This document shows, piece by piece, positions 46,568-64,000 of a stretch of 64,000 nt of DNA. A program made the translations under genes and the position numbers. Source of the stretch: Candidatus Nanopelagicales bacterium (lineage in GTDB: Bacteria > Actinomycetota > Actinomycetes > S36-B12 > UBA5976). Within the stretch, counting starts at the first letter, position 1; each line of letters begins with the position of its first letter. The notes beneath the pieces were generated by a model. The model was given only the letters and a program-made list of their open reading frames with translations, was not told where the DNA came from and did not search any database. The stretch is from positions 11,123 to 75,122 of the forward strand of contig JAGYJD010000005.1 of NCBI GenBank assembly GCA_018402365.1. The letters are read 5' to 3'.

Positions 46568-47210
46568 CTGTATTCTCAAAAACTTTAAGTATCTCTGCGA
46601 GTGAAATACCCCCCTCTCGCACCAATACAGGGCTATCAGTGCTTAAATCCAAAATAGAAGACGGCTCACTCGCTGGTAGTTCCCCTTGATCTAAATAGAC
46701 AGCAATATCGCTACCAAACTGTGCTTTTATCTCAGAAATGCTTTTACCCGCACTTTGCCCAACTTTATTTGCGGTAGTGGTTGCCAAAATTTCATCTTCC
46801 CCCAAAATCTCGAAAGCTACTGGATGAAGTGGCATGCGAACCGACACCACATTTGGAGTAATTCCCTTATTCCAACTGAGATTATTTAGCCCTTTAAGCA
46901 CGAGTGTTAAAGGACCGGGCCAAAAACATAAAAATTTATTCTTAACATCATCGTTTATCCCGGCGCAGAACTTTTGCAACAATGAAATATTACCTAAAAA
47001 TATAGTTAGTGGAGTTTTTGGAGTTTGCCCTTTAATGCTCCAAAGTAGCTGCAGAGCTTTTTCATCCATTGCTCTTACTGCTAGGGCGTAACTGGTATCT
47101 GTGGGTAGTGCGATGACTCTTCCGGCAGCTAAAGCTTCTTTGGCGGCTTTGATGCCATTTTCTCTCGGAGTTGGGTGAGAGAGACTAAAAACTCTTGCGG
47201 CAACTAGCAT
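46560..47210 (-). CDS. YrdC/Sua5-domain protein (L-threonylcarbamoyladenylate synthase family)
   Basis: IALPTDTSYALA, WPGPLTLVL and VRMPxHP motifs. 216 aa. 1-nt overlap with the TIM-like gene. Confidence 0.8.
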   Translation of the reverse strand: MLVAARVFSLSHPTPRENGIKAAKEALAAGRVIALPTDTSYALAVRAMDEKALQLLWSIKGQTPKTPLTIFLGNISLLQKFCAGINDDVKNKFLCFWPGPLTLVLKGLNNLSWNKGITPNVVSVRMPLHPVAFEILGEDEILATTTANKVGQSAGKSISEIKAQFGSDIAVYLDQGELPASEPSSILDLSTDSPVLVREGGISLAEILKVFENTVK

Positions 47211-47971
47211 CAGACACTTAGGTCGTGACTAGATCTGTAGCCTGAAAAGGCTTTTTCAAAAACATTTCTAAATCCATCTTTCGACCAAGCACTACGTCCT
47301 ACAAATAGGCCATCACATAATTTAAGGGATGCGATTTCTTCTGCATTTTCAATATTTACTGATCCACCATAACAAAGTGGAAAGTTCTTGGTATCTAATT
47401 CAAGTTCATTTAAAACTTCGTTAATAATGGTGAACGATTGTTCAATATAAGAAATACCAGCCGGTGTGCCATTAACACCAATTGACCAAACTGGCTCATA
47501 CCCGATGAGTGCCCAAGGTATTTGTAAATCTTTTAATACTATTAATTGCTTTTTAAATACTTCTCTTCTTTTATTTAAGTTTTCTTGCTGTGTTTTCTCG
47601 CCTATGCAGTAAATTATCTTTAAGTCATTTTCTTGACAATTTTTAATTTGAGCTGCTAAATCTGCTTCAGTTAATCCAAGCGCTCTTCTTTCAGCGTGTC
47701 CTACCATTACTAAGTCAGCATCTAATTCTTTTATTAAATTTGCAGAGATTTCACCAGTGGTGTTTCCCTGGGCACCAGAAATTTCTTGTGGGCCAATCCA
47801 TAACCCTGAGCCAAATGACATTTTCTTTAATGGCACTAAAAGTGGCATGGTGGGTAACACGAATAACTGCACTGCTTGATTAAATTTTGCCAAATGTGAT
47901 GCGATCTCAACAACTTCTTCGTGGAGTTTTCGACCTAAAAGTTGCTTAGTATTGGTACCAAAATAAAACAT
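47210..47971 (-). CDS. triosephosphate-isomerase-family paralog (EryH/LerI-like tetrulose/erythrulose-phosphate isomerase candidate)
   Basis: Catalytic residues are retained (FGTNTK for AGNWK, GHAERR, YEPVWSIG) but the N-terminus is divergent. Last-but-one gene of the ABC operon. Confidence 0.75.
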   Translation of the reverse strand: MFYFGTNTKQLLGRKLHEEVVEIASHLAKFNQAVQLFVLPTMPLLVPLKKMSFGSGLWIGPQEISGAQGNTTGEISANLIKELDADLVMVGHAERRALGLTEADLAAQIKNCQENDLKIIYCIGEKTQQENLNKRREVFKKQLIVLKDLQIPWALIGYEPVWSIGVNGTPAGISYIEQSFTIINEVLNELELDTKNFPLCYGGSVNIENAEEIASLKLCDGLFVGRSAWSKDGFRNVFEKAFSGYRSSHDLSV

Positions 47972-47990
47972 AAACGTTACCGAGTTTCGA

Positions 47991-49076
47991 TTATTTGACT
48001 TTTATCTCGCTCGAGAGCGCTTTTCCGGAACTGTCAAAGAAAGTGATATTTTCTGAGGCAATACTGGTCCACACCGTATCTTTTGCTTCTCTTCCTATGC
48101 TGTGAGAGACGCGAGCCTTAACCAAAAGACCTCCCACTGTGAGATCAAGTAAGTACTGACCTCCTGCGCCAATTGATTTACGAGTGACTGTTGCAGCGCA
48201 AGCGCCTGCTACTTGACTTATTGACACGCTAATGCCCTCGGCTCTTACGCCTAAAATATCAACGCTAGTTGCTTTGGAGCCTAAATCAATTGTTTGAGTA
48301 AACAGCGGGGAAGTTATTTTTGTTCCAGCAACGCTGACGAACTCTGACGGAACAAAGTTCATTCCGGGATTTCCTAAAAACCAACCAGCGAATTGACTAT
48401 TTGGGTTTTCATAGATGACTTTAGGTGAATCGGACTGAGTAATCACTCCATCTTGCATTAAGGCAATTTGGTCAGCCAAAGTCATGGCTTCTGTTTGGTC
48501 GTGGGTTACATAAACAATGGTCTGCTTAAGGCGACTAAATAATTCTTTCATACTGCGCTTCAACTCCATTTTAGAAGTTAAATCAATATTAGTAATTGGT
48601 TCGTCAAATAAAATAATTCGTGGCTGCCGAGCAACTTCACGTCCCACTGCAATTTTTTGACGCGTTCCGTTATCTAGCTCTTCAACTCGTCGTTTTAAAA
48701 CGCTGGTCAAATCAAGAATTTCTGCAACTTCGTCAACACGCTTATCTAATTCATCCTTACTTAGTTTTTCTGACAATAAAGGTAATTCTAGATTTTTTCT
48801 AACACTGGTTCCACGATAAATTACTGGGTATTGAAAGACCATTCCAATATTTCGTCTTCTGGTCGGCACATCAGTGACGTCATGTTCGCCAAAGAATATT
48901 CTTCCGCGAGTTGGAGTCTCTAGCCCAGCTATCATTCTCATCAATGTCGTTTTTCCACAACCTGATGGTCCTAACAAAACCGTTACAGAAGATTTAGGAA
49001 TGGTAAAAGTAATGTCATCCACCGCAGTAAAATTATCAAATTCTTTGGTTACGTTTTCTAAGCGAATGTCATACAT
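47991..49076 (-). CDS. ABC importer ATPase B (consensus Walker/H-loop, degenerate signature), MalK/UgpC-like with C-terminal regulatory domain
   Basis: GPSGCGKTT, FDEP and VTHDQTEA are canonical, but the signature reads LDNGTRQ instead of LSGGQ. Confidence 0.9.
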   Translation of the reverse strand: MYDIRLENVTKEFDNFTAVDDITFTIPKSSVTVLLGPSGCGKTTLMRMIAGLETPTRGRIFFGEHDVTDVPTRRRNIGMVFQYPVIYRGTSVRKNLELPLLSEKLSKDELDKRVDEVAEILDLTSVLKRRVEELDNGTRQKIAVGREVARQPRIILFDEPITNIDLTSKMELKRSMKELFSRLKQTIVYVTHDQTEAMTLADQIALMQDGVITQSDSPKVIYENPNSQFAGWFLGNPGMNFVPSEFVSVAGTKITSPLFTQTIDLGSKATSVDILGVRAEGISVSISQVAGACAATVTRKSIGAGGQYLLDLTVGGLLVKARVSHSIGREAKDTVWTSIASENITFFDSSGKALSSEIKVK

Positions 49077-50154
49077 TTGAAACTCCTTGGCCTATACGCA
49101 TTCCAGTATCTGCATCAAACAAAACCAGTGCCTCGGGATTATAGCTAAGCGAAACAGTTTTAGAATCAAGTTTGGCCAAAGACTCATCATCCGTTCGAGA
49201 AACTACCGTGACCAGATTTATACCATTTACTTCAAAATAAACAGCAAATTCAGACCCTAAATTTTCTAATAATCCCACTTTGGCATCAGTTTTACCTGCT
49301 ACTGAATCAATTGAGATACCTTCAGGTCTTAGGCCTGCCACAACTTTAGAGGCGACCGAATCTACTTTAACCTTGGTGTTGCCTAAGACAGAAGTGAAAG
49401 TTGTACCTGATAATTCACCCGGAAAAATATTTGCTTCAGGAAACCCAAGCGAATTCATGCTCGCTATCGAATTGGGCAAGTCGTAAACCACATCAAGGGA
49501 ATCTTGTTGAACGATCTTTCCATTCGCCAAAATCATCACAGTTCGCGCTAAAGACAGTGCTTCAAGTGGATCTGACGTCATGTAGACAAACGCAACTTTT
49601 AGTTCCTCTTGAGTTTTTCTTAAATCATCTATTAATCTTTCACGCAATTTAAAGTCCAGACCGACCAACGGATCATCCAGCACATAAACATCTGTTGCTT
49701 TCGCTAAACCTCTGGCAATTGCCACCCGCTGCTTTTGTCCACCTGATAACTGCTCGGGTTTTTTAGCTAATAAATCAGTGATTTTAAGCAGTTCGGCAAC
49801 TCGCGCTACTGATTCTGTTTTCGTAGCTTTGCTGGCCTTTGCTAAAACTAATGGATACTCGATGTTTTCTAGAACTGAATAATGCGGGTAAAGTGCGAAA
49901 CTCTGCGGTACATAACCAATATTTCGATCCCCTGCCGCTGCTTGCGTGGCATCTTCACCTCTCACGATGATTGAGCCCGCATCAATCGTTTCTAGCCCCA
50001 TTATGGTTCGCACCAACACCGATTTACCGTTATTTGGCTTTCCACAAATTACAGAGAAATCGTCCATCCCAGCACTAAAAGAAAGGTTATCTAAAACAAC
50101 ATTGCTGCCATAAGACTTTGTTAGTCCCTTGACTTCAAGTGCGTATTCAGCCAT
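49069..50154 (-). CDS. ABC importer ATPase A (degenerate catalytic site, canonical signature)
   Basis: GKPNNGKS Walker A and LSGGQKQRVAIARGL are present, but Walker B reads VLDDP (no catalytic Glu) and the H-loop reads MTSDP (no His). Start set at MAEYALEV (50154) to avoid overlap with the small ORF. Confidence 0.85.
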   Translation of the reverse strand: MAEYALEVKGLTKSYGSNVVLDNLSFSAGMDDFSVICGKPNNGKSVLVRTIMGLETIDAGSIIVRGEDATQAAAGDRNIGYVPQSFALYPHYSVLENIEYPLVLAKASKATKTESVARVAELLKITDLLAKKPEQLSGGQKQRVAIARGLAKATDVYVLDDPLVGLDFKLRERLIDDLRKTQEELKVAFVYMTSDPLEALSLARTVMILANGKIVQQDSLDVVYDLPNSIASMNSLGFPEANIFPGELSGTTFTSVLGNTKVKVDSVASKVVAGLRPEGISIDSVAGKTDAKVGLLENLGSEFAVYFEVNGINLVTVVSRTDDESLAKLDSKTVSLSYNPEALVLFDADTGMRIGQGVSNV

Positions 50155-50170
50155 TTTTATAGTTTCCCCT

Positions 50171-50485
50171 TTAGAAATTTCTCTTAGGTCTGCCAAGCTC
50201 GATCAAATAAGGTGTTACAAAAATTGAAAAGATAAAAATAAGAAAGATTATTAGTAAAATGATCATGGTTTTCTTTAAGGATTTCTTAAAACCCCAATCC
50301 GGATTTATATTACCTAAGGCAATCTGCAATATAACCGTCGCGGACAACAGTCTGAAACCCCATACATATGCTTCATAAGAAACTTGTTGAGCCAACAAAA
50401 ATAGCGAGGTGAGCAACAAATATATATTTAATTTTTGAGCTCTAGCAGCGAAGGGCTCCTTTTGAGTTTTGATTACTTCAGACAT
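50171..50485 (-). CDS. small (104 aa) 3-TM membrane protein encoded inside the ABC operon
   Basis: The ORF exactly fills the gap between permease 2 and ATPase A; its start abuts the permease stop at 50486. It has three hydrophobic segments. Confidence 0.55.
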   Translation of the reverse strand: MSEVIKTQKEPFAARAQKLNIYLLLTSLFLLAQQVSYEAYVWGFRLLSATVILQIALGNINPDWGFKKSLKKTMIILLIIFLIFIFSIFVTPYLIELGRPKRNF

Positions 50486-51340
50486 CTATACTTCACCTCG
50501 GACAGTTCCAAAGGTAAGGCCGACTAATAGATACTTCTGAAACACATAAATTACGACCACTAGCGGTAGTACATAAAGCGTTCCAATTGAAGCCACATAG
50601 GCCCAATCGATTCCACCGCCTTTTGTCGAACCGGTGAATAAACCAACTGGGATACCATAAGTTTTAGCACCACCTAATTGAAAGTTATACAAGAACTCGT
50701 TCCACACAAAGAGGATATTAAATACGAAGGCTGCTACCAAGCCAGGCTTCACCTGAGGCAAGATAACTTTAAACATGATGTGAAAGCGTGACGCTCCGTA
50801 AACTAATCCTGTTTCATCAAATCTTTGTGAGACGCCGTCTAAAAATCCTTTTAGGATCCAAACTGAAAACGGAATGGCAAACATAGTGTAAAAAGCAATT
50901 AAGCCGATGTAGGTGTCCTTTAGTCTCAGTAAGTTAAATAACTGAAAGTAGGGAATTACAAAAGCCGCCGCAGGTACAAATCTGGTGGACAACAATAAAA
51001 ACATCAAAAAGTCTGTTCCCGCTGGTTTAAAGCGAGAGAAAGAGTACGCGGCAAGGTAAGAAACCAAGATCGCCAAGCTCACCGAACCAAATGAATAAAT
51101 AACAGAGTGCGTGAAATAATCTAGCGTGTTATCAAAGCTCAACGCTTCGATAATGTTGTCAAAAGTCGGTCTAAAAAAGAATACCGGCGGAGAAACAACA
51201 ATGCTTCCCTTTGGCTTAAGCGCGGTAGAGACAATCCAAGCAATTGGTAAAAAGAAAAGAAGTGAAATTAACCAAGCGCCAATCGTCGCGAATTTTATGG
51301 GTCCTGATTTACGTTTGGGCTTGAAAGTTACGTCGCTCAT
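50486..51340 (-). CDS. carbohydrate ABC transporter permease (CUT1 type, MalG-like)
   Basis: 6 TM, EAA-loop region (GASRFHIMFKVILPQVKPG). 284 aa. Confidence 0.9.
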   Translation of the reverse strand: MSDVTFKPKRKSGPIKFATIGAWLISLLFFLPIAWIVSTALKPKGSIVVSPPVFFFRPTFDNIIEALSFDNTLDYFTHSVIYSFGSVSLAILVSYLAAYSFSRFKPAGTDFLMFLLLSTRFVPAAAFVIPYFQLFNLLRLKDTYIGLIAFYTMFAIPFSVWILKGFLDGVSQRFDETGLVYGASRFHIMFKVILPQVKPGLVAAFVFNILFVWNEFLYNFQLGGAKTYGIPVGLFTGSTKGGGIDWAYVASIGTLYVLPLVVVIYVFQKYLLVGLTFGTVRGEV

Positions 51341-51341
51341 T

Positions 51342-52286
51342 TTATTCCTCAGCCTTCTTTCTCGCGTTCAACACATATAAATAGATTGCAGTCAAAGCGA
51401 TTGCTACGAATAGCAAGAACACTGAAACTGCCGAAGAATAACCTAATTTGAATGATTTGAAGGCAAACCTGTATAAGGAAACCGCAATTAACTCTGTTCG
51501 ATCCCCAGGCCCTCCCCCCGTCATTACATATGCCAAGTCCATCGTCTTGAAGGCATCAATAATTCTTAACAAAAGTCCTAAACCTAAAATGAACTTTGCG
51601 TGTGGCCAAATTACAGTTCTAATTAATCGAGTTAAAGGTAAGCGATCAACCCGAGCAGCTTCTAATTCAGCTTTAGGAACAGAGCCTAAAGCCGCCAGGG
51701 TCATCAAAGTCATAAATGGCGTCCACATCCAAGTGTCCACAAACACCAGTGTCGGAAACGCTAAAGTTGTGCTGCTAAGAGTATCAATTCTATCAAAACC
51801 AAAGGTCGAAACAAAAAAATTCAAAACACCTAAGGTTGGGTCAAGAATGAACTTCCAGAACAAAGAAGTTGCGATTGGTGTAACCACCATTGGTGTAAAA
51901 AGAAGAGTTAGCGCTAAGCGACGACCTGGCATTTTGTCATTTTTCCAAAAGAGTACACCTATTAAAATTCCTAAGATAGTTTGCAAAATTACTGCGCTCA
52001 ACACGAAAATTAAAGTTCGTGAGACAGCTCCCGCCAATGCGCGATTTGCTAGGAAGTCTCGAAAATTATCAAAGCCTACAAACCGCGGATTTTGTGCCGA
52101 AGTTAGTGTGTAATCGTAAAAAGCTAAACCAAACATCCAAACTGTTGGCAGCACACTCATTAAAATAAAAAAGAATAAAACTGGGGCTAAAAGACCCCAA
52201 GATAACCAAGTCTTCTTTGATTCTAGCTTTTTAGCCTTGGGAACGTCCTTGATGGATTGTTCAAGTGTCTCAACGCTTTTAGCCAT
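51342..52286 (-). CDS. carbohydrate ABC transporter permease (CUT1 type, MalF-like)
   Basis: 6 TM, EAARVDRLPLTRLIRTVIWP EAA motif. 314 aa. Confidence 0.9.
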   Translation of the reverse strand: MAKSVETLEQSIKDVPKAKKLESKKTWLSWGLLAPVLFFFILMSVLPTVWMFGLAFYDYTLTSAQNPRFVGFDNFRDFLANRALAGAVSRTLIFVLSAVILQTILGILIGVLFWKNDKMPGRRLALTLLFTPMVVTPIATSLFWKFILDPTLGVLNFFVSTFGFDRIDTLSSTTLAFPTLVFVDTWMWTPFMTLMTLAALGSVPKAELEAARVDRLPLTRLIRTVIWPHAKFILGLGLLLRIIDAFKTMDLAYVMTGGGPGDRTELIAVSLYRFAFKSFKLGYSSAVSVFLLFVAIALTAIYLYVLNARKKAEE

Positions 52287-52400
52287 TGCCGTCCTTTAAT
52301 TAATTTTTCTAAAAACATCTAACGTTGGCGTAATCATAAGAGATGTGTTGGCATCCCAGTCAACTGGGACACCAACACATTACTCTCTTCTTTTAAACTC

Positions 52401-53939
52401 TTAGAGTCTTAAAGAGTCGACATTCTCCGGTGGAGGTGTCGTGGTCCGACCAGCATTGAAGAGAATTTGCTGTTGTTTTGCTGCAGCGTATTCCAAAGCG
52501 TCTTTAGCCGACGCAACGGTTCCACTCGCATAACCATTGAATGCTTCTTGCTGTACTGCAAGCATTTCAGCATATTCTGGCAAATGCCAGAAGTCTTGTG
52601 AGCGACCCTCTTCAAGCATGTATAAGAAGGGCTCTACATAGTGAGCAACTGATAAATACTCAGGATTTGCAGCACCTTCTTTGCTCCATGGCAAGCCACC
52701 GTTGTTTTTAATGAACTTGTCTTGAGTATCTTTTGTGTACCACCACTTGAGAACATCGATTGCCACTCTCATTTGGTCGTCATTGTTGAATGCGTTGATT
52801 ACCCATGGCTGGCCACCCATTGCACCAATTAGTTTTCCATCCCATTTAGGAAGTGGGATCGAGATGACCATGTCTGGCTTGACAACTGCGTCAGCGCCAC
52901 CCATAAATGCACCCACTGCTAACCATTGCCAGGCAGAAAAGCATTTTCCACCGTTGAAAAGGTCAAGCAGAGAACCGATACCAAAAGAAGCTGCATCTGC
53001 TGGCTGATACTTCATCAGACCAACAAACTCTTCCATTGCTGCGGCGTTGATATCAGAATTTAGGATTCCGTAAACATCTGAAGTTTCTGGATCCCAAATT
53101 TTTCCGCCTGTTGAATAAGCGAATGGGTAGTAGGCACAGCTAAAGAAGTCATACTCTTTCGAGTACATCAAAGCAGTACCGAACATCTCTTCATCTGGAC
53201 GATGGAAGAAATCGATGATTTCAACTAGAGCTGAATATTCAATTTCTACATATTCTTCATAAGTAGTTGGAAGATCTTTTCCAGTTGCTGCCTTGAATGC
53301 AGCTTGTTCTGCTGGATCCTCGAGCATGTCCTTACGCATGAATACTCCCTGAGTGTCAGGCATTTGTGGGAAGCCCCAACGAATTCCTGAACCATCTGGG
53401 TAAACCTGGTAAGTGTCTCTAACCAAACTAGAGAAAGGTTCGATGTCTAGTTCTGGGTTGGCTGCGAAGACATCATCTGCCTTTACAATCCATCCTGGTT
53501 CTGACAAAGCACCTAACCACTGCGAGTCGACGACCATAAGATTGTACTCTGATGATCCGGCGGCAAGAGTTGGTGAAACTTTTTGGAACAGTTCACCGAA
53601 ACCTGCTTCGACGAAAGTTATATCGTTAACCGTATAACCATAGTTTTCTAAGGCATAGGCCTGAAAATCTGCCCATTGAGTTGTTGGCGCAGCGCTGGGT
53701 GGCCAACCTCCAATACGCGAGTATGCAAAGTCAATGGTCTTACCTTGCATATTGGTTGCATTGCTTCCATACAACGGAGAGTCTGCGGCTGGGGCTTCTG
53801 CTGAGCCACCTCCGCTTGTTGATCCCCCATCATCACTGCAAGCTGCCAGCAAACCTGCCGCTGGAATTGCAGCGCCTGCTATCGCCCCTGCTTTAAGTAG
53901 CCGGCGACGGTCAAGCTTCATTTTTGTGTCTTCTGACAA
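52401..53939 (-). CDS. large extracellular solute-binding lipoprotein with Tat-type signal
   Basis: RRRLLKAGAIAGAAIPAAGLLAAC (twin-Arg plus lipobox) and a Gly/Ser linker. 512 aa, larger than typical CUT1 binding proteins. Alternative start at MKLDRRR (53921). Confidence 0.85.
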   Translation of the reverse strand: MSEDTKMKLDRRRLLKAGAIAGAAIPAAGLLAACSDDGGSTSGGGSAEAPAADSPLYGSNATNMQGKTIDFAYSRIGGWPPSAAPTTQWADFQAYALENYGYTVNDITFVEAGFGELFQKVSPTLAAGSSEYNLMVVDSQWLGALSEPGWIVKADDVFAANPELDIEPFSSLVRDTYQVYPDGSGIRWGFPQMPDTQGVFMRKDMLEDPAEQAAFKAATGKDLPTTYEEYVEIEYSALVEIIDFFHRPDEEMFGTALMYSKEYDFFSCAYYPFAYSTGGKIWDPETSDVYGILNSDINAAAMEEFVGLMKYQPADAASFGIGSLLDLFNGGKCFSAWQWLAVGAFMGGADAVVKPDMVISIPLPKWDGKLIGAMGGQPWVINAFNNDDQMRVAIDVLKWWYTKDTQDKFIKNNGGLPWSKEGAANPEYLSVAHYVEPFLYMLEEGRSQDFWHLPEYAEMLAVQQEAFNGYASGTVASAKDALEYAAAKQQQILFNAGRTTTPPPENVDSLRL

Positions 53940-54026
53940 GTGAACTCCTTCTCAAAAAGGATCGGCCCGAGATAGGTCGGTCTCACGACTAATAATGTGA
54001 CATAGGTTGCTATCTAGTCAAGACTA

Positions 54027-54054
54027 TTGAAGAACTCTGCATAACAATTAGATA
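54027..54054 (+). promoter_or_regulatory. candidate promoter of the rpiB...gntR operon
   Basis: TTGAAG-16 nt-TAGATA. The -35 is embedded in the 14-nt box AAGACTATTGAAGA, which is shared with the promoter at 61423..61459. Confidence 0.4.
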
Positions 54055-54120
54055 ACATTGCTAAAATCGAAATCGGCAGTAGCAAACTGCCTGGTGCAAA
54101 TAGTGAGGACTGTGACTGGA

Positions 54121-54597
54121 GTGACTAAGTACCGAATTGTGGTTGGATCTGATTTTGCCGGATTTGAATTAAAAGAATTATTAAAAAAATACTTACAAAA
54201 TGACTCTCGAGTTTCTGAGGTAATTGAAATCGGTGTTAATTCTTTAGAAGACAAGACTGATTATCCAAATATTGGATTTGCTTTGGGTGAAAAAATTCAA
54301 GAACAAGCAGCTGATCGTGGTTTATTAGTTTGTGGGACCGGAATTGGAATGGCAATCTCGGCAAACAAGGTGCCGGGAATTCGTGCCACTACTGTTCATG
54401 ATCCCTACTCCCTAGAGAGAGCAGTCTTGAGTAATAATTGTCAAGTTATTACAATGGGTGCTCGAGTCATTGCGCCAGAATTAGCCCTAAGTTTGATAAA
54501 GCCTTGGCTTGATTATGTTTTTGATGAGCAAGGACCCAGCGCACCAAAAGTAAAGCAAATTAATCATCTAGAAAAGGAAGCCAAAAATAATGAGTAA
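54121..54597 (+). CDS. rpiB: ribose-5-phosphate isomerase B / RpiB-LacAB family sugar-phosphate isomerase
   Basis: RIVVGSDFAGFELKE, LVCGTGIGMAISANK and the catalytic region. Start placed at GTG 54121; the track ORF from 54058 adds a non-conserved 21-aa extension and would precede the predicted TSS. Confidence 0.85.
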   Translation: MTKYRIVVGSDFAGFELKELLKKYLQNDSRVSEVIEIGVNSLEDKTDYPNIGFALGEKIQEQAADRGLLVCGTGIGMAISANKVPGIRATTVHDPYSLERAVLSNNCQVITMGARVIAPELALSLIKPWLDYVFDEQGPSAPKVKQINHLEKEAKNNE

Positions 54598-55102
54598 AGG
54601 CACAATTGCATTTCCTATCGCTGATGGGGTTGAGGATTTGGAATATCACGTGACAAGAATGCGGCTAGAAGAAGATGGCTTCAAAGTGGTAAGTGCCGGA
54701 GTTGATAAAAAACAAATAATTGGCAAGAACGGTTTAAAAATTGATATCGACGTTTTGATTTCAGATTTGAAAGCAAGTGAACTTCAGGGCTTAGTGCTAG
54801 CTGGTGGATGGGCGCCAGACAAGTTAAGAAGATATGAGAATGTAATTAATTTAATAAAAGAAATTAATGCACAAAATAAGGTGATAGGAATTATTTGTCA
54901 TGGCGGCTCACTCGCAGTGTCAGCAGATATTCTCAAAGGTAAAAAGTCGACTGGCTCATTGGGTATCAAAGACGACCTAGTGAATGCTGGGGCAACTTGG
55001 GTAGATGAAGCTGCATTTAGCGAGGGCAACTTGGTCTGGGGTCGAGTAGTGGCCGATATTCCTGATTTTTGCCGTGAACTGGTTAAAACCCTTAATCAGT
55101 AA
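54590..55102 (+). CDS. DJ-1/PfpI family protein (class I glutamine-amidotransferase-like; deglycase/glyoxalase III candidate)
   Basis: Nucleophile elbow IGIICHGG and LAGGWAP. 170 aa. 8-bp overlap with rpiB. Confidence 0.85.
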   Translation: MSKGTIAFPIADGVEDLEYHVTRMRLEEDGFKVVSAGVDKKQIIGKNGLKIDIDVLISDLKASELQGLVLAGGWAPDKLRRYENVINLIKEINAQNKVIGIICHGGSLAVSADILKGKKSTGSLGIKDDLVNAGATWVDEAAFSEGNLVWGRVVADIPDFCRELVKTLNQ

Positions 55103-56659: not shown

Positions 56660-56706
56660 AACGCAAGTTTAGTAACTAAGAACTTAGTTACTGGAAGGGA
56701 AGAGCA

Positions 56707-57591
56707 ATGCATTTATCTATGCACAACTGGATGCGTGCCGAGCCATTGGAAACAACCATCGCCCGACTAGCTAAATACGGTTACAAGAGTATTGAAATCA
56801 GTGGAGAACCAGAAAAATATCCATCTGCCGATACTCGCGCTTTATTAAAAAAATACGACCTAAAGTGTTGGGGTTCTGTGACTCTAATGTTAGGTGAAAG
56901 AAATCTAGTTGCTAAAGATGAAGGAAAACGTGCTGAGAGTGTTCAGTATGTAAAAGATTGCATCACTATGGTTAAAGAACTTGATGGAACAGAAATGACA
57001 ATTGTTCCTGCCACGGTAGGTAAAATTACTCCAGATGCAACTCCAGAAGAAGAATGGAGTTGGGCAGTTGATGGCATGAAAGATATCTATGCCCATTCCC
57101 AAGCAGCAGGCGTGAAATTAGCAATCGAACCCTTAAACAGATTCGAAACTTATTTCATTACCCGATGTGAACAAGCTCTAGCTTTAGCTGAAGCAACTGG
57201 TCCAGATTGTGGAGTATGTCTAGACGCATTCCACATCAACATTGAAGAAGAAGATCTATACGCTGCAATTCGTTTAGCTGGTAAAAAGCTAAATGACTTT
57301 CACGTCGCAGATAATAATCGGATGCCAGCCGGACACGGTGATTATGACTGGAAGAAAGTTGTCGCCACTTTGAAAGAAATTGGTTATGACGGTGCGCTAA
57401 CTGCTGAATTTGTTGCTCCAGTTGATAGGACTCCAGCAAACAGATTCCCAAATGCTCTGGATATGAATCCACCAGGAATCGATCCAGATCAATTGAAGTT
57501 CATCATTGACCACGGCTCATCTATTCTTACCGAAGAATTTTATGACTGGTTGGTTAAAGAGAACGCCGAGACATTACTACCTCTTATTTAA
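56707..57591 (+). CDS. xylose-isomerase-like TIM-barrel sugar(-phosphate) isomerase/epimerase
   Basis: IEPLNRFET, LDAFHINIEE and HVADNNR...GxG..DW...L..IGYDG metal-ligand pattern (AP_endonuc_2 fold). Confidence 0.85.
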   Translation: MHLSMHNWMRAEPLETTIARLAKYGYKSIEISGEPEKYPSADTRALLKKYDLKCWGSVTLMLGERNLVAKDEGKRAESVQYVKDCITMVKELDGTEMTIVPATVGKITPDATPEEEWSWAVDGMKDIYAHSQAAGVKLAIEPLNRFETYFITRCEQALALAEATGPDCGVCLDAFHINIEEEDLYAAIRLAGKKLNDFHVADNNRMPAGHGDYDWKKVVATLKEIGYDGALTAEFVAPVDRTPANRFPNALDMNPPGIDPDQLKFIIDHGSSILTEEFYDWLVKENAETLLPLI

Positions 57592-57627
57592 CTAATAAGA
57601 AATCTTAATTAGCGACTTCAGGAGACT

Positions 57628-58851
57628 TTGGTGAATGACTTAGTGCTAGTAATTGGCACACTTGACACCAAAGGTCCTGAGGTTGCTTATTTAAGAGACA
57701 AATTAAAAGAGTATGGACTCAAGCCCTACGTAATTGATGTAGGAATTCTTGGTGAACCCATAGGCATCACCCCTGATTTTTCTAAGGCTCAACTTGCCCA
57801 ATTCGGTGGCACCACAATCGAAAAAGTTCAGAATGCTGGCTCTCGCGGAGCTGCCGTTGAATTGATGCGCGAATTTGTTATAAAAAAAGTTGAAGAGATG
57901 GTGTCTAAAGAAGAGGTGATTGGTGGCATCGGGATAGGAGGCGCTGAGGGCGGGGTAATGACAGCCGCGGCCTTAATGGTGTTACCGATTGGAGCTCCCA
58001 AAATTGTGATCTCGCCGATTGCTTCAGGTAAGCATGAATTTGCCCCACTGGTTGGCACCACAGACATGATGACAATGCATTCCATTGTTGACATTTTGGG
58101 ATTAAACGACATCTCAAAAACTATTTTTGATAACGCTGCTGCTGCGGTTTACGGAATGATTGAAAAAGGGCATCAACTAACAAAACCAAAACCTGGCACA
58201 AAAGCAGTTGCCGTGACAATGCTGGGCAATACCAATACTGCAATCACCGCGATGCAGCCCTTAATGAAAGAAGCCGGATACGAATTAGTGGTATTTCATG
58301 CCAATGGCGTGGGTGGTGCTGCCATGGAGGAGCTGGCAACCGCCGGACAGTTCGTTGGGATTATTGATTTCACAACGAATGAAATGGCTGCAAATATGTT
58401 TGGCGGCATTCATGTGGCAGATCAAAACAGATTAACAGTTGCCGGCAGTTTGGGAATTCCACAAGTTGTGGTTCCGGGATGCGTTGATTTTATAGTTTTT
58501 CATGCAAATACTGTTCCAGAAAATCTTAAAGCTAGACCAATTTACAACCACAATCCAGAGTATTGGCTAGTCAGGCTCACTGGTGAAGAAATGGAAAAGT
58601 TAGGTAAAAAGTTTGCTGAATCTTTAAACACTTCACTTGGTGAAGTGAAGGTGGTAATTCCCACTCAAGGTATCTCTATTCCTAATAAAAAAGGTGGTAT
58701 TTTTTTTGATCCTGCAGCTGATAAAAAATTTATGGATCAAATGCAACAAACCTTAAAACCTGATATCGAAGTCACAAGCTTTGATCTGCATGTCAACGAT
58801 GCTGAATTTGGTAAGGCAGTCGGTAAACTTTTTATCGATATGATGAAATGA
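57628..58851 (+). CDS. UPF0261 / Tm-1-like ATP-binding domain protein
   Basis: VLVIGTLDTKGPEVAYLRDKL start, MLGNTNT, FHANGVGG and PGCVDF blocks as I remember family PF06792. AGGAGA RBS favours GTG 57631 over the track's TTG 57628. Confidence 0.7.
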   Translation: MVNDLVLVIGTLDTKGPEVAYLRDKLKEYGLKPYVIDVGILGEPIGITPDFSKAQLAQFGGTTIEKVQNAGSRGAAVELMREFVIKKVEEMVSKEEVIGGIGIGGAEGGVMTAAALMVLPIGAPKIVISPIASGKHEFAPLVGTTDMMTMHSIVDILGLNDISKTIFDNAAAAVYGMIEKGHQLTKPKPGTKAVAVTMLGNTNTAITAMQPLMKEAGYELVVFHANGVGGAAMEELATAGQFVGIIDFTTNEMAANMFGGIHVADQNRLTVAGSLGIPQVVVPGCVDFIVFHANTVPENLKARPIYNHNPEYWLVRLTGEEMEKLGKKFAESLNTSLGEVKVVIPTQGISIPNKKGGIFFDPAADKKFMDQMQQTLKPDIEVTSFDLHVNDAEFGKAVGKLFIDMMK

Positions 58852-58860
58852 GGAAAACAA

Positions 58861-59775
58861 ATGGCTAAACACCCAATCAGAGAATTTCAACGGCTCACCT
58901 CAGGTGACGATGCCTTTCGGGCAAAGTTTCGCTCTTGGGATATGACGGAATTGTCTTACGTTGATATTCGTGAATATCTAAAAGAGAAAGACACCGTGCT
59001 GGTGCCAATGGCGTCCACCGAACAACACGGCCCGCACTTACCCTTGTACACCGACACAATTACTGCCATTGAAGTTGCAGAGCGAGTTTCTGAGGCAATC
59101 GGAGTTTTTCATACCCCACCAATTTGGACTGGCTACTCACCTCAGCACATGCACTTGCCCGGTGAAGGTCGCGGCACCATCACAATCAAGGCCTCAACTT
59201 TAAATGCCTTGATGTACGACGTGGCTCGTTCATTAATTCATCATGGTTTCAACCGAATTATTTTTATTAACGGTCATGGCTCAAACACCAAAGTCGTTGA
59301 TCCGGTATTAAGAAAATTACGTTACGAAACTGGCGCACTAATCGGATTTGTGCGGCCTTACATGGAGCGTTACGTGGGTGTATTAGAAGGTCTTATGGAA
59401 AACCCACCAGAAGAAACTCCCGGTTGGCATTCCTCCGAATTAGAAACCTCCCAAGACATGGCTTATGACCCTGATTTAGTGAGAATGGAACGGGCTTATC
59501 CCGAGAAGGCTCACATCCCCAGCTTTTTACCAGCGAGCTTTCAAAAAAATGATGGGATGCCGGATGTTGAATTTGAAGGGTATCAATATTTTACCTTTCC
59601 AATGGATCACCATGAATTCGTAGAATCAGGCACCATCGGAAATCCCATGAGAGCCACTATGGAAAAAGGCGAAGAAGCGTTTCGTCGTCTTTCCGAGCAC
59701 ACAGCAAAAGCTATATTAGAATTAACAAAAGTTCCGGTGACAGTCACCAACAGAGAGTTTGTTGATCGCGTTTAA
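58861..59775 (+). CDS. creatininase-family metal-dependent amidohydrolase
   Basis: VLVPMASTEQHGPHLPLYTD, INGHGSN and SELETS motifs of creatinine amidohydrolase/ArfB/MftE-type enzymes. 304 aa, longer than the usual size of about 260. Confidence 0.8.
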   Translation: MAKHPIREFQRLTSGDDAFRAKFRSWDMTELSYVDIREYLKEKDTVLVPMASTEQHGPHLPLYTDTITAIEVAERVSEAIGVFHTPPIWTGYSPQHMHLPGEGRGTITIKASTLNALMYDVARSLIHHGFNRIIFINGHGSNTKVVDPVLRKLRYETGALIGFVRPYMERYVGVLEGLMENPPEETPGWHSSELETSQDMAYDPDLVRMERAYPEKAHIPSFLPASFQKNDGMPDVEFEGYQYFTFPMDHHEFVESGTIGNPMRATMEKGEEAFRRLSEHTAKAILELTKVPVTVTNREFVDRV

Positions 59776-59777
59776 AA

Positions 59778-60452
59778 ATGAAAGCAGAAAACGATAAGTC
59801 GCAGGCATCATCTTTAGCAGTTGATGCCTACGATTATTTAGTTGAGGCTATTACTTCTTTTAAACTCCCTACCAATACCGCCATCAGCGAAAATAAATTA
59901 GCATCGCAATTGGGAATTTCTCGCACCCCCATTAGACAGGCTTTGCAACGACTTGAATCAGAGGGCTTGATTACTAAAAGTGACTCTTCTCGATTTAGTG
60001 TTGCCCTAGTTACCCCTAAGCAAGTTGAAGAAGCTTGTGACTTACTACAAATTATTGATACCTATCTTTTTACTAGAGCTGCTAAAAATTTGAATAAAAA
60101 AAGTAGTGATGAATTAATTGCAATAACTCAAGAAATGATTCGGGCTGCTAAAAATGATGACCGCGACAAATGGAGTCAGGCCGATACAAAATTTCATAAT
60201 CTAATAATTAAAGCTGCCGATAACCGCATGGTCTCAGATTTAGCAATTGTTACTCGAAGAAAGATTCAAAGATTTTGGACCAAATCTGCTGTTTATGAAA
60301 ATCGGCTAAGTTCGTGTTCGAAAGAACATGAGGTATTAGCCCGCGTAATTGTCAAGAAAGATTTTGAGGCAATTGAACCAGCCGTGATAGATCACATGTC
60401 ACATATGCGCTCAAGTATTTTACGAATCATCGAAACTGCGGCAGTCTTTTAA
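59778..60452 (+). CDS. GntR-family (FadR/FCD subfamily) transcriptional regulator
   Basis: ISENKLASQLGISRTPIRQALQRLESEGLI winged HTH plus an all-helical FCD C-domain (HxxI...H). Starts 2 nt after the creatininase stop. Confidence 0.9.
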   Translation: MKAENDKSQASSLAVDAYDYLVEAITSFKLPTNTAISENKLASQLGISRTPIRQALQRLESEGLITKSDSSRFSVALVTPKQVEEACDLLQIIDTYLFTRAAKNLNKKSSDELIAITQEMIRAAKNDDRDKWSQADTKFHNLIIKAADNRMVSDLAIVTRRKIQRFWTKSAVYENRLSSCSKEHEVLARVIVKKDFEAIEPAVIDHMSHMRSSILRIIETAAVF

Positions 60453-60510: not shown

Positions 60511-61377
60511 TTAGTATCTGGCCTTCATAAATTTAATTGCTTTTTCAGCTAGATCATGGGAGTCATCCCATAGATTTCGCCAAATACGCAAGGCATTGGA
60601 TAACGCTGGGTCCACCACCACTGATGAAAATGATTCAAAAGTAATGGGGCCTGAGTAATTGATGGTCTTTAAGGCTCCAAAAAATGAATCAAAGTCCACA
60701 TTGCCAGTACCTAAATAACCGCGATGACTCTCGCCAATATGAACATAGCCAATGCGATCTGCTGCTGCCAGCACTCCCTCAACCATGCCGTCTTCTTCTA
60801 TATTCATGTGATAAGTATCTAAATGTAGGTAAACGTTGGGCTTATCTACCTCTTCTAAATAAAGCAAGCCTTCTTTGGCTGTATTCATTAGGTTACTTTC
60901 GTATCGATTCACGATTTCAATATTTAGATTAATTCCTTTGTCCGCGGCATAATCAGCCATACGCTTCATAGCCCCGACTGAATTGGCACGATTCTCTTTT
61001 GTGGCAGGTTGCTCATACGGCTGCAAACTTGAGGCAAAGGGACCATCAAATTCAACTCCGCCGATAGCAGCTAGTTTGTCTATCGCCTGTCGCGCTAGCT
61101 CTTCTCCGGCTTTAACAATTGACTTATCAGCACTCGAAATATCGGTACTGGCGGTTAAAACAAAACAGCCCGCAGCTTTTAAATTAAATTCCGCAAGTAA
61201 ATCTTTGGTCATTGCTGCATCAATTTTTTCGGGTTCCGCAATCAAGATTTCAATCAGATCATAACCCGCTTTATGAGCGCTGCTGGCAGCAAAGCGGGCA
61301 CTCTTTGGTGACCAATCCCCTGCCCAAACAAGCGAGTGCCCTCCAAATTCTAAAGGTTTCTTATCTGAAATTGACAT
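60511..61377 (-). CDS. ketose 3-epimerase family enzyme (D-tagatose/D-psicose 3-epimerase-like TIM barrel)
   Basis: IEIVNRYE, LDTYHMNIEE and HIGESHRGYLGTG...F..L..INYSG match the DTE/DPE metal and catalytic Glu motifs. Confidence 0.8.
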   Translation of the reverse strand: MSISDKKPLEFGGHSLVWAGDWSPKSARFAASSAHKAGYDLIEILIAEPEKIDAAMTKDLLAEFNLKAAGCFVLTASTDISSADKSIVKAGEELARQAIDKLAAIGGVEFDGPFASSLQPYEQPATKENRANSVGAMKRMADYAADKGINLNIEIVNRYESNLMNTAKEGLLYLEEVDKPNVYLHLDTYHMNIEEDGMVEGVLAAADRIGYVHIGESHRGYLGTGNVDFDSFFGALKTINYSGPITFESFSSVVVDPALSNALRIWRNLWDDSHDLAEKAIKFMKARY

Positions 61378-61480: not shown

Positions 61481-62356
61481 ATGAAAGGAATATCTGTGGG
61501 TGTTGTTTCTTTGAATGACATCTTGAAACCTGCCTTTGAAGAACGTTATGGTGTACCGGCGATAAATATTTTTAACGATCTAACTCTCGAAGCAGTACTT
61601 GCTGGTGCTGTTAAAGCTAAATCCCCCTTAATAGTACAAACCTCAGTCAAAACAGTAAAAAGTATTGGCGTTGAAGTTCTGGCAAACATGTGGCAAGCAA
61701 TGACAAAAGGCATCGAAGTTCCGGTCGCGCTGCATTTAGATCATTGCCCAAATCGTGATGTGATTACTGCCTGCTTAGAGCATGGGTGGAATTCAGTTTT
61801 GTTTGATGCCTCAGAATTACCAGTTGAAGAAAATCAAAGACAAACCATCGAAGTAGTAAAACAAGCTCGCGCTTTTGGCGCTTCGGTTGAGGGTGAAATT
61901 GAAGCAATAACTGGCGTTGAGGACGGACACGGATCAGACTCAATTGCGAAAAGAGAATCTTTAGAAACTTCTCTGACTTTTATTGAAGAAACTGGCATTG
62001 ATGTCTTTGCTCCCTCAATTGGCAATGCTCATGGCTCCTACAAGTCAACGCCTGTCATTGATTTTGATCGGGTCTCTGACATAGTTTCAAAAAAATCTAT
62101 CCCCATTGCACTTCACGGTGGAAGCGGATTAACTTTGGAGCAATTTCAAGAATTAATTTCACGCGGTTGTGCAAAAATTAATATATCAACGGCGCTCAAA
62201 GAGCTCTATATGAAATCTACTCTTTCTTTTCTTGTTGAAACAGAGAAAAAAAATAAGTGGGATCCCCCCTCATTATTTGCGGCCACTCGTGAGGACATTA
62301 TTGAGCTGGTGGTTGATTTAACTGAACAATTTGGTAGCAAAGACAAGGTTGGGTAG
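61481..62356 (+). CDS. class II ketose-bisphosphate aldolase family (FbaA/GatY/KbaY-like)
   Basis: HLDH, EGEIE, GNAHGSYK and LHGGSG zinc and substrate motifs. 291 aa. Confidence 0.85.
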   Translation: MKGISVGVVSLNDILKPAFEERYGVPAINIFNDLTLEAVLAGAVKAKSPLIVQTSVKTVKSIGVEVLANMWQAMTKGIEVPVALHLDHCPNRDVITACLEHGWNSVLFDASELPVEENQRQTIEVVKQARAFGASVEGEIEAITGVEDGHGSDSIAKRESLETSLTFIEETGIDVFAPSIGNAHGSYKSTPVIDFDRVSDIVSKKSIPIALHGGSGLTLEQFQELISRGCAKINISTALKELYMKSTLSFLVETEKKNKWDPPSLFAATREDIIELVVDLTEQFGSKDKVG

Positions 62357-62365
62357 ATAACTTCG

Positions 62366-63067
62366 ATGCCCGCTTTGATTTTTGACTGTGATGGAGTACT
62401 GGCTGATACTGAAAAAGATGGTCACCTGCGCGCGTTTAATCAAACTTTTGAGCACTTTCACTTGCCGGTGCACTGGAGTGTTGTGGACTATGCAGAAAAA
62501 TTAAAAATTGGTGGAGGAAAAGAGAGACTAAAGAGTCTTTTAACTCCAGAATTTATTAGCAAGGCAGAACTCTCGCCCGATCCCAAAGCGCAAGCTGCGG
62601 CTGTGGCCGATTGGCATCGCTATAAAACTGACATCTATACAGACTTAGTCGAAAGTGGCGTTATGCCACCGCGGGCTGGAATTGCCAGAATTGTTAAAGA
62701 GGCACATGCGGCAGGCTGGAAACTTGCGGTCGCCTCCACTTCACACGCAAAGTCGGTCCAAGCTGTGCTTACTCATGCGGTGGGGGCTGAACTTGCTGCT
62801 GACTTTGCGGTTTTTGCGGGCGACATTGTGCCCCACAAAAAACCAGCACCAGATATTTACCGACTAGCGCTTGCCGAATTAGCGGTTTCGACTGCCCAGG
62901 CGATAGTGATTGAAGATAGTCAAAATGGTTTAGCGGCAGCCACTGCTGCTGGGCTTCGCACAGTTGTCACCATAAGTAGCTTCACCTCAGCAGAAAATTT
63001 TGCTGCTGCTTCACTCGTAGTCAGTTGCCTAGGTGACTTAGCTACCGGGCAACCGGCAAGCTGCTAG
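62366..63067 (+). CDS. HAD-superfamily phosphatase (CbbY/beta-phosphoglucomutase-like subfamily IA)
   Basis: LIFDCDGVLADTE motif I, AVASTS motif II, K...EDSxNG motif III/IV. Confidence 0.8.
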   Translation: MPALIFDCDGVLADTEKDGHLRAFNQTFEHFHLPVHWSVVDYAEKLKIGGGKERLKSLLTPEFISKAELSPDPKAQAAAVADWHRYKTDIYTDLVESGVMPPRAGIARIVKEAHAAGWKLAVASTSHAKSVQAVLTHAVGAELAADFAVFAGDIVPHKKPAPDIYRLALAELAVSTAQAIVIEDSQNGLAAATAAGLRTVVTISSFTSAENFAAASLVVSCLGDLATGQPASC

Positions 63068-63173
63068 AAAATCCAGCTAACCTAACCTTAGGTGAAGAAT
63101 AACGCCTGCTGATTTGAAAAACATTTTAGAACTACCCGCAATAAATTAAAAACCAATCATAAGGAGAGTAAAA

Positions 63174-64000
63174 ATGACACATTTAGTAAATGACCCTGTC
63201 GATTTTCCAGTTGAATTAGTTGACGGCTTTACAAAAGCAAACTCGAGATATGTAAAAAAAGTTTATGGCGGTGTGGTGCCGGGCTACTAAAAGTGCGCCG
63301 GGCAAGTTTCTATCATCACCGGCGGTGGAACAGGTCACTATCCGGTTTCATGGGTTGGGTTGGTCCTGGTTTAGTGGATGGCGCTGTCACCGGAAAAGTT
63401 TTTGCCTCCCCCTCTGCCTCGCAGGCCCGAAGTGTTGCAAAGGCTGCCGATCACGGTGGCGGAATCATTCTTGCTTTCCTAAATTACGCCGGCGATGTCC
63501 TGCATTTTGGTATGGCGGCTGAATTGCTTAAAGCTGATGGCTATGAAGTAAGAAGCGCCGTGGTAACAGATGATGTGGCCTCTGCCTCTAAAGAAGAAGT
63601 TAAGAAACGTCGCGGTATTGCTGGAGGTTTAGCGGTATTAAAAGTAGCCGCCGCCGCAGCTGAAGCTGGACTTGGCTTGGACGAAGTCTTTAGAGTTTTA
63701 AACAAAACAAATGATAGAACCAGAACTTTTGGGGTAGCTTTCTCAGGTTGTACCTTGCCCGGTTCTCAAAAACCCTTATTTGAAGTTCCAGCCGGAAAAA
63801 TCGCAGTTGGTTTAGGTGTGCATGGTGAACCTGGAATATTTGAAACAGATCTTGGAACCGCCGATGATGTAGCAAAATTATTGGTCGACAAACTTTTAGA
63901 TGAAGTTCCAGCTGGTGCAGGTAAGAAAGTTATTGCACTCTTAAATGGTTTGGGTTCTGCTAAATATGAAGAGCTCTATGTGACTTATGAATCTGTCGCT
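63174..64000 (+). pseudogene. dhaK: dihydroxyacetone/erythrulose kinase DhaK-domain gene, disrupted by three 1-nt frameshifts; continues beyond the window
   Basis: Frame 1: MTHLVNDPVDFPVELVDGFTKANSRYVKKVYGGVV, then a stop at 63288. RATKSAPGK is in frame 2 (63279-63306). VSIITGGGTGHYP is back in frame 1. From 63344, frame 3 reads GFMGWVGPGLVDGAVTGKVFASPSASQ...NYAGDVLHFGMAAE...GVHGEPG, open to the window end. Confidence 0.8.

Follow-up and report, generated by a model that had tools for sequence, protein, structure and literature searches.

Separable catabolic modules nested within one region of a Candidatus Nanopelagicales genome

Adjacency within one lineage can falsely join independent modules into one 'pathway', and the question raised by the locus described here is whether its catabolic genes belong to one pathway or to several. 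The window (the whole stretch of DNA analysed, 64,000 nucleotides of Candidatus Nanopelagicales bacterium, assembly GCA_018402365.1, contig JAGYJD010000005.1, positions 11,123 to 75,122) carries at 47210-64000 genes for an ATP-binding cassette (ABC) transporter, a triosephosphate isomerase (TIM) paralog, an RpiB-family isomerase and a Dak-family kinase, together with a flavoenzyme, a UPF0261 protein, a creatininase-like hydrolase and two xylose-isomerase-like (XI-like) barrels. An earlier note on this DNA had read them all as a single non-canonical pathway for a C3/C4 polyol or rare ketose. Gene-neighbourhood comparison shows instead that the region is a nested mosaic of separable modules, not one unit. 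According to our fuller reading, to which we give a probability of roughly one half, this small-genome, low-GC actinobacterium combines an uptake unit for C3/C4 ketoses (module A, 47210-55102 plus DhaK/DhaL genes beyond the window) with an independent ring-opening cassette (module B, 55157-60452) and a strain-variable insert (module C, 60511 to ~69.5 kb, as seen in relatives).

The mosaic follows from three kinds of loci: those in which the cassette recurs alone, a relative (L175) with the transporter unit and no cassette, and a relative (L091) without module C. The cassette comprises the flavoenzyme, an XI-like barrel, UPF0261, the creatininase-like hydrolase and, usually, a GntR/FCD regulator. 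About 25 loci holding it were obtained from genome and metagenome scans and from Pfam-annotated contigs; the scans, swamped by the generic motif EQHGPHLP, gave ~20 orthologous loci. The loci in which the cassette stands alone (L007-L018, L087-L090, L094-L099 and L102) come from at least five phyla or groups (Actinomycetota, Chloroflexota, Rhodothermales, Acidobacteriota and Longimicrobiales), and none of these ~25 contains TIM, RpiB, DJ-1, Dak, a class II ketose-bisphosphate aldolase or the window's transporter, so the proposal that the flavoenzyme, XI-like, UPF0261, creatininase-like and GntR genes form a branch of a tetrulose route is not borne out. Conversely, L175 runs DhaK-DhaL / DJ-1<-RpiB / solute-binding protein (SBP)-permease-permease-small membrane protein-ATPase-ATPase-TIM, followed by Ddl, and has no cassette; its TIM is 47% identical to that of the window. 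L091, part of a 1.11-Mb contig, encodes proteins that are mostly 75-97% identical to those of the window, and has both the transporter unit and the cassette but lacks the epimerase/aldolase/HAD/DAK/E1E2 block, that is, module C. L174 carries the cassette and agrees with L091 over its reach, and L001-L006 match the window and extend past its end. The TIM/RpiB/Dak signature forms the conserved core of the transporter unit in L175, L091 and L174, DJ-1 accompanies RpiB in the same three loci, and DhaK/DhaL flank the transporter unit in L001, L091 and L175. The single pathway proposed earlier is thus not conserved as a unit.

The features of the region, mapped from the open reading frame (ORF) list and from Pfam and NCBIfam profile searches of the window's proteins, are as follows.

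46560-47210, minus strand: YrdC/TsaC-type protein (TIGR00057 equivalog passed, 142.3 vs 123.2 bits)
47210-47971, minus strand: divergent TIM paralog, LerI-like, last gene of the transporter operon (Pfam TIM 2e-42)
47991-49076, minus strand: ABC ATPase 2, MalK/UgpC-like (ABC_tran; UgpC subfamily 284 bits, below cutoff)
49069-50196, minus strand: ABC ATPase 1, MalK/UgpC-like, with a TOBE_2 domain (Pfam, NCBIfam)
50171-50485, minus strand: 104-aa membrane protein particular to this transporter family (no Pfam match even at E<=1)
50486-51340, minus strand: ABC permease (BPD_transp_1)
51342-52286, minus strand: ABC permease (BPD_transp_1)
52401-53939, minus strand: large (512-aa) Tat-lipoprotein SBP (SBP_bac_1, SBP_bac_8)
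53940-54120, no strand: divergent control region between SBP and RpiB, with the palindrome TAGTCAAGACTA at 54015-54026
54058-54597 (likely true start 54121), plus strand: RpiB-family sugar-phosphate isomerase (LacAB_rpiB 7e-45)
54590-55102, plus strand: DJ-1/PfpI (Pfam 1e-40; PfpI subfamily 131.7 vs cutoff 139)
55157-56659, plus strand: cassette gene 1, FAD_binding_4/FAD-oxidase_C flavoenzyme (Pfam; active-site pattern like that of alkyl-dihydroxyacetone-phosphate synthase, ADPS)
56707-57591, plus strand: cassette gene 2, XI-like TIM barrel, ketose-3-epimerase/IolO-like (AP_endonuc_2)
57628-58851, plus strand: cassette gene 3, UPF0261 protein, Tm-1/MarK-type (Pfam N and C domains)
58861-59775, plus strand: cassette gene 4, creatininase-family metal hydrolase, IolN-like (Pfam, NCBIfam)
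59778-60452, plus strand: cassette gene 5, GntR/FCD regulator, accompanying the cassette in most loci (Pfam)
60511-61377, minus strand: second XI-like barrel, psicose-3-epimerase-like (psicose-epimerase model 168.6 vs 300)
61481-62356, plus strand: class II ketose-bisphosphate aldolase (FBA; F_bP_aldolase 3e-79; cbbA subfamily 215.4 vs 215.6)
62366-63067, plus strand: HAD phosphatase, shortened here by indels (Pfam; 261 aa in relatives)
63175-64000, plus strand: 5' part of a fused Dak1-Dak2 kinase running off the window end (three frame changes)

All families that had been named before were found where they had been placed (ORF map, Pfam, NCBIfam), arranged in at least four transcription units rather than two. 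The YrdC gene is likewise present, starting at 46560, just outside the 17-kb island as first drawn; it is probably a housekeeping neighbour rather than a pathway member, since it passes the TsaC equivalog cutoff, and it adjoins TIM in L091 and L174 and is absent in L175. The absence of EryA/EryB and of an SDR or MDR polyol dehydrogenase from the window was confirmed, with no FGGY, GlpD-like, SDR or MDR gene at 46.5-64 kb or in L001, L091 and L175.

The transporter of module A belongs to a family with a recognizable genomic context. The SBP begins with DRRRLLK...LLAAC, which reads directly as a Tat motif followed by a lipobox, and its homologs in Caldilinea (58% identical) and Kumtagia (46%) head operons that continue with DhaK-DhaL. 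On the Caldilinea contig (Chloroflexota) the transporter is followed by DhaK-DhaL-DhaM, and in Kumtagia ephedrae (Alphaproteobacteria) by PfkB-DhaK-DhaL, so that the family is tied to Dak-type kinases across three phyla. Relatives of the window's transporter thus resemble DhaKLM systems in their order, with the difference that the actinobacterial loci showed no DhaM. A gene for a 94-104-aa protein stands at the matching position in L091, L092, L093, L174 and L175, and the small membrane protein is 58-65% identical across the relatives compared. The overall plan, with two MalK-like ATPases, two permeases and a large SBP, recalls the architecture described for the glycerol ABC transporter GlpSTPQV (PMC11223650). 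Membership in that system was considered and rejected: the architecture fits, whereas the naming of the SBP and the small membrane protein do not, in that JGI names the homologs of the window SBP 'multiple sugar transport' and not by the glycerol transport KEGG orthology (KO) term, and the 104-aa protein has no DUF2160 match at E<=1. The neighbours also differ, being DhaK/DhaL, with neither glpK nor glpD present.

The TIM gene at the end of the transporter operon had been taken for a paralog, and the profiles agree. It fails all TpiA equivalogs (NF000722, 152 vs 293 bits; TIGR00419, 78.7 vs 130.6), and its best match in the PDB is LerI, an 'L-erythrulose-1-phosphate isomerase' (11ef_A, E 1.5e-29). 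The catalytic Lys, His and Glu are retained. Two features are shared with LerI: F(V/I)GRSAW where canonical TIMs have the GGASL loop, and an insertion, IG(V/E)NG(T/I)PA (IGxNGxPA), after YEPVW; among the 120 TIM homologs listed, GRSAW is kept in 115 and IGxNGxPA in ~100. It is also the fastest-evolving gene of the unit, with 47-58% identity against 62-91% for most neighbours (L091, L174 and L175), a divergence that suggests relaxed or shifting constraint and a rate that would be unexpected for a housekeeping TIM. Taken as a whole, the sequence makes this paralog a candidate L-erythrulose-1-phosphate isomerase. Neither a second tpiA nor a second rpiB was found within the 64-kb window.

RpiB is a more ambiguous case. 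Its score suffices for the generic RpiB subfamily model (153.8 vs 135), falls narrowly short of RPI_actino, the actinobacterial ribose-5-phosphate (R5P) isomerase equivalog (156 vs 168 bits), and lies far under the NCBIfam DerI equivalog (152.6 vs 240 bits). The protein has a CGTG Cys-type site, and GSDFAG stands where the canonical RpiB motif is Asp-His; the three best PDB matches lack the His of this motif as well. It is a candidate D-erythrulose-4-phosphate/erythrose-4-phosphate isomerase or else an R5P isomerase.

The combination of Dak, TIM and RpiB has been described as a signature of routes from tetrulose phosphates to erythrose-4-phosphate (E4P) in Brucella, Mycolicibacterium smegmatis and Yarrowia (PMC5992420, PMC10733421, PMC12542623). 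The earlier note had invoked this signature for the whole region; it is supported for the transporter unit, with its conserved core and LerI-like TIM, and not supported for the flavoenzyme, UPF0261 and creatininase-like genes as a branch of it. Similarly, of the proposed C3/C4 substrate the ketose reading is retained for the transporter unit, and a polyol-activating step is not present. With neither a polyol kinase nor a polyol dehydrogenase present, the simplest reading is that a free ketose is taken up directly. In this scheme, the ABC transporter would import a C3/C4 ketose in free form, with erythrulose and/or dihydroxyacetone (DHA) as the likeliest substrates, and a Dak-type kinase would phosphorylate it; the TIM paralog would convert L-erythrulose-1-phosphate to D-erythrulose-4-phosphate, which the RpiB-type isomerase would turn into E4P, while dihydroxyacetone phosphate (DHAP) would be converted to glyceraldehyde 3-phosphate. 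DJ-1/PfpI may clear reactive carbonyl side products. We infer the ligand and all enzyme specificities from sequence comparison; the observations behind the scheme are the gene content, the conservation of the unit, the association of this family of transporters with DhaK/DhaL, and the LerI-like signatures.

Genes for a Dak-family kinase, a TIM paralog and RpiB are clustered with a transporter, as in the Brucella EryC/EryH(TpiA2)/EryI(RpiB) system, in M. smegmatis (LerK/LerI/DerI) and in the EYK1 cluster of Yarrowia, and LerI is the best solved relative of the window TIM. Unlike those systems, the window has no EryA/EryB and no tetritol dehydrogenase (EltD/DthD-type), its RpiB falls below the DerI equivalog cutoff, a DJ-1/PfpI gene is included, and a two-subunit DhaK/DhaL lies beside the unit, which we call ancestral. 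If the reading is right, module A is a minimal tetrulose route without a polyol-activating step, a moderately new variant of a known route, and adds free C3/C4 ketoses (erythrulose, DHA) to the diet of abundant genome-streamlined freshwater Actinobacteria. As for its regulation, the palindrome at 54015-54026 in the divergent control region is perfect and may be an operator; it shares bases with a -35-like TTGACT of the minus strand. Two close relatives, L001 and L004, retain it, and L091 retains only half; in a test of a shared GntR operator for both divergent operons, the palindrome was not found upstream of cassettes elsewhere and showed no conservation beyond close relatives. Promoter and terminator scans gave nothing above chance.

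Turning to module B, the creatininase-like gene always adjoins UPF0261, with stop and start codons often overlapping, and this hydrolase-kinase couple is the invariant core of the cassette. The hydrolase is itself strongly conserved, at 75-81% identity across Actinomycetota, Chloroflexota, Rhodothermales, Acidobacteriota and Longimicrobiales (L007-L018, L090) and 77-82% for homologs from Microbacteriaceae, Arthrobacter and a Longimicrobiales metagenome-assembled genome, whereas its operon partners are less so (flavoenzyme 41-68%, UPF0261 44-59%); UPF0261 may be its partner in a complex. Both metal-ligand motifs, EQHGPHLP and NGHGSN, are kept, and the scores all fall below cutoff for creatininase (EC 3.5.2.10; 123.5 vs 235), MftE (104.2 vs 172) and IolN (97.9 vs 245).

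The UPF0261 protein shares the two-domain fold of MarK (Novosphingobium) and tomato Tm-1. MarK uses ATP to phosphorylate acetovanillone, and this activity, reported in 2025, was the first for UPF0261 (PMC12624787). In the window protein GTLDTKG aligns with QDTKE of MarK, the ATP-contacting Lys (MarK K16/Tm-1 K20) is present, and DTKG is invariant in 23 cassette orthologs. Equivalents of MarK Gly195, His219, Phe283 and His304 are conserved; among the residues that contact acetovanillone in MarK, His348 is replaced by Pro, Thr196 by Asn and Ile285 by Val. The neighbourhoods differ as well, in that the acvCDEF carboxylase and phosphatase genes are not among the neighbours, with no carboxylase gene in any cassette locus compared, and the partner is the creatininase-like hydrolase. 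A kinase/phosphatase pair as in acetovanillone catabolism was rejected for UPF0261 and the creatininase-like protein, the phosphatase of that pathway, HpeD/AcvF, being NagD/HAD-like.

For the flavoenzyme, which has FAD_binding_4 and FAD-oxidase_C domains like the ADPS/GlcD family, the best PDB matches are ADPS proteins (E 9e-42), ahead of D-lactate dehydrogenase. Its (D/E)HHG(V/I)G and a Tyr align with the HHH and catalytic Tyr of ADPS and are invariant in 20 orthologs. The His-His-Glu substrate/metal site of D-2-hydroxyacid dehydrogenases (GlcD/LDHD/D2HGDH) is not seen in the alignment with mouse LDHD: a Tyr takes the place of the second His, and an ADPS-like (D/E)HHG that of GEHG, which leaves the metal site without this His and without its Glu; on the GlcD equivalog the protein scores 172.9 vs 567.9 bits. 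It differs from ADPS in being much shorter and in having, in several phyla, an Fe-S partner. This partner gene, present in 7 loci, indicates a true dehydrogenase and a net oxidation. Pairing of the flavoenzyme with DJ-1, as a D-lactate/glycolate dehydrogenase in methylglyoxal detoxification, was also considered and is weakened by the ADPS-like active site and by DJ-1 going with RpiB. The XI-like barrel of the cassette has conserved metal-ligand motifs, scores equally for psicose 3-epimerase (129 vs 300) and for IolO (124 vs 300, a paralog-level match), in both cases below cutoff, and matches 2-oxo-tetronate isomerase and hydroxypyruvate isomerase weakly.

The closest described arrangement is that of Thermotoga maritima IolM/IolN/IolO, named by NCBIfam scyllo-inosose 3-dehydrogenase, 3-dehydro-scyllo-inosose hydrolase and 5-keto-L-gluconate epimerase, respectively. 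IolN, a C-C hydrolase of the creatininase family, and IolO, an XI-like epimerase, are reportedly consecutive steps of the Thermotoga inositol route (attributed to Rodionova et al. 2013). As there, the cassette encodes a creatininase-family hydrolase and an XI-like barrel (98 bits to IolN, 124 to IolO) together with a dehydrogenase; it differs in that the dehydrogenase is the ADPS-like flavoenzyme, a UPF0261 kinase is obligatory, and regulators and transporters are unlike those of Thermotoga. Our best guess for the cassette is an IolM/N/O-like oxidative ring-opening route, with a step order and substrate class that we infer by analogy. Acting on a cyclic substrate, polyol-like or carboxylated, the FAD dehydrogenase would introduce a second carbonyl; the ring would then be opened hydrolytically by the creatininase-like metalloenzyme, the XI-like barrel would epimerise or isomerise the keto product, and UPF0261 would phosphorylate it for aldol cleavage elsewhere. 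The integrity of the cassette, its distribution and its conserved catalytic motifs are the observed part.

Genes accompanying the cassette vary. A Liv/HAAT-type ABC transporter lies beside it in 13 loci, and a GFO/IDH/MocA oxidoreductase (levoglucosan dehydrogenase model 388 vs cutoff 650; IolG-like) beside an IolE-like XI barrel in at least 13. The binding protein of the Arthrobacter cassette's HAAT transporter is nearest to benzoate-derivative binders, a match weakly compatible with a cyclic carboxylate. In six loci (L009 17-2025; L013 13910-16400; L016-L018) a second UPF0261 gene, a PEP_hydrolase-like TIM barrel (PF09370) and a cupin are found beside the cassette; the second UPF0261 and PF09370 barrel amount to a split form of the plant Tm-1 architecture.

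A divergent version is present on Thermus thermophilus megaplasmids (in strain TF19, plasmid pTF19b, L177 5690-14736). One side encodes GntR, a Zn dehydrogenase (IolM match 225 bits), a CBS protein and a TIM barrel; the divergent side encodes the creatininase-like protein (47% identical), again adjoining UPF0261, and in addition a class II aldolase/adducin protein together with a carboxylate transporter of the TTT type. The UPF0261 gene of strain AA1-1 (L176) is cut short by a transposase.

A literature search for the cassette (UPF0261, creatininase family, IolN/IolO) found no description, and module B is probably an undescribed pathway built from known folds and of greater novelty than module A. 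We tentatively hold, at somewhat less than even odds, that the cassette is an undescribed catabolic pathway in which the hydrolase and UPF0261 act as an obligatory couple on an abundant, unrecognised compound of the environment, and that streamlined freshwater actinobacteria in addition import erythrulose/DHA through the ABC/LerI/DerI/Dak unit. If so, the cassette would provide the second known catalytic role of UPF0261 and a new reaction of the creatininase fold. With its compact operon and a bacterial flavoenzyme of the ADPS-like kind, module B offers a clean target for discovering enzyme functions, made tractable by its cultured hosts Arthrobacter, Microbacterium and Thermus.

Several observations weigh against this picture of a ketose unit next to an independent ring-opening cassette. 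Regarding the independence of the modules, the cassette is co-oriented directly behind RpiB-DJ-1 in three relatives, and in L097 (692-10900) a two-ATPase CUT1 transporter, whose SBP is 29% identical to that of the window, lies directly upstream of Fe-S, XI-like, UPF0261 and creatininase-like genes; modules A and B may therefore be functionally linked, and the presence or absence of the cassette may reflect either insertion or loss. Regarding the cassette chemistry, the transporters beside it (HAAT, TTT, MFS, CUT2) point to no single evident substrate class, and its scores lie far below the equivalog cutoffs of the Thermotoga enzymes. Regarding the tetrulose route, LerI leads the best canonical TIM by a modest margin (106.6 vs 94.5 bits), RpiB could be a housekeeping R5P isomerase, given its generic model pass and near-equivalog score, and the Caldilinea transporter has as neighbours an iron-containing alcohol dehydrogenase (Fe-ADH, of the family including GldA), an FGGY kinase and a glycerol-3-phosphate (G3P) dehydrogenase, which point to glycerol/DHA. 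Contiguity, the short gaps between RpiB-DJ-1 and the cassette, the recurrence of the arrangement in L091, L174 and L001-L006, and the pairing in L097 would all suit one integrated 17-kb pathway, in which an unknown C3/C4 polyol or rare ketose is imported and all enzymes feed E4P and triose phosphate, the flavoenzyme oxidising, UPF0261 phosphorylating, and the XI-like, creatininase-like, TIM, RpiB, aldolase and DAK proteins processing the product. We consider this quite unlikely, as the cassette occurs with other transporters and without TIM/RpiB/Dak in ~25 loci of five phyla, L175 keeps transporter, TIM, RpiB, DJ-1 and DhaKL without the cassette, and L091 does without the epimerase/aldolase/HAD/DAK block.

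Module A might alternatively be a plain glycerol/DHA uptake system with DhaK, in which TIM and RpiB are ordinary isomerases lying there by chance and no tetrulose chemistry takes place. The Caldilinea linkage to DhaKLM, Fe-ADH and G3P dehydrogenase, the GlpSTPQV-like two-ATPase architecture, the profile scores of RpiB and the frequency of single copies in small genomes speak for this view, which nevertheless appears unlikely when set against a TIM that reaches about half of every TpiA equivalog cutoff, matches LerI best among solved structures, carries LerI-type motifs and evolves much faster than most of its neighbours, and against SBP homologs named only 'multiple sugar transport' rather than by the glycerol transport KO and a small membrane protein without a DUF2160 match. 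The cassette, for its part, might be a non-orthologous route for tetronates (four-carbon acid sugars) ending in decarboxylation to DHAP, with the dehydrogenase giving a 2-oxo acid, the XI-like barrel a 3-oxo acid, UPF0261 replacing the DUF1537 kinase and the creatininase-like protein acting as lactonase or decarboxylase. In its favour, carboxylates are the usual signals of FCD-type GntR regulators, the Thermus version includes both a carboxylate TTT transporter and a class II aldolase/adducin protein matching 3-oxo-tetronate-4-phosphate decarboxylase (109 bits), the barrel's weak isomerase matches fit, the Arthrobacter cassette with its transporter is self-contained, and DHAP as product would suit the neighbourhood in the window. 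Both the route and this assignment of its steps are nonetheless improbable: the flavoenzyme has no His-His-Glu pattern in the LDHD alignment, OtnI scores 48.3 vs 325 bits and OtnC 109 vs 250 (the Thermus protein), no class II aldolase/adducin gene goes with the main cassette, only with the Thermus variant, and there is no DUF1537. The nested mosaic remains the reading that we prefer.

Module C, the third part of this mosaic, is present only in the window's closest relatives. Its content would be compatible with additional handling of a ketose or ketose-1-phosphate, for example by an EryC-like epimerase or by the cleavage of erythrulose-1-phosphate discussed in PMC10733421. Within the window the block is damaged: alignment with near-identical metagenome contigs revealed five single-base indels within ~290 bp (63050-63350), which affect HAD at its 3' end and DAK at its 5' end, whereas the rest of the region has intact ORFs. 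On translation of 63.06-64.0 kb the Dak gene is spread over three frames; on the relatives' contigs HAD has 261 aa and the fused Dak1-Dak2 protein 569 aa. Either the assembly is locally wrong here, or the strain carries a pseudogene of its own. What had been called DhaK is accordingly a member of the Dak family, although in fact a fused ATP-type DAK that is frameshifted in the window; the intact protein of L001 scores 688 vs 492 on NF011049. Beyond the window end, the relatives continue with a fused E1 alpha-beta and E2, then with DhaL-DhaK on the opposite strand. In L001 (16114-19557) the fused E1 alpha-beta (730 aa) and E2, which follow the fused DAK, belong to a pyruvate dehydrogenase (PDH)/acetoin-type 2-oxoacid dehydrogenase complex.

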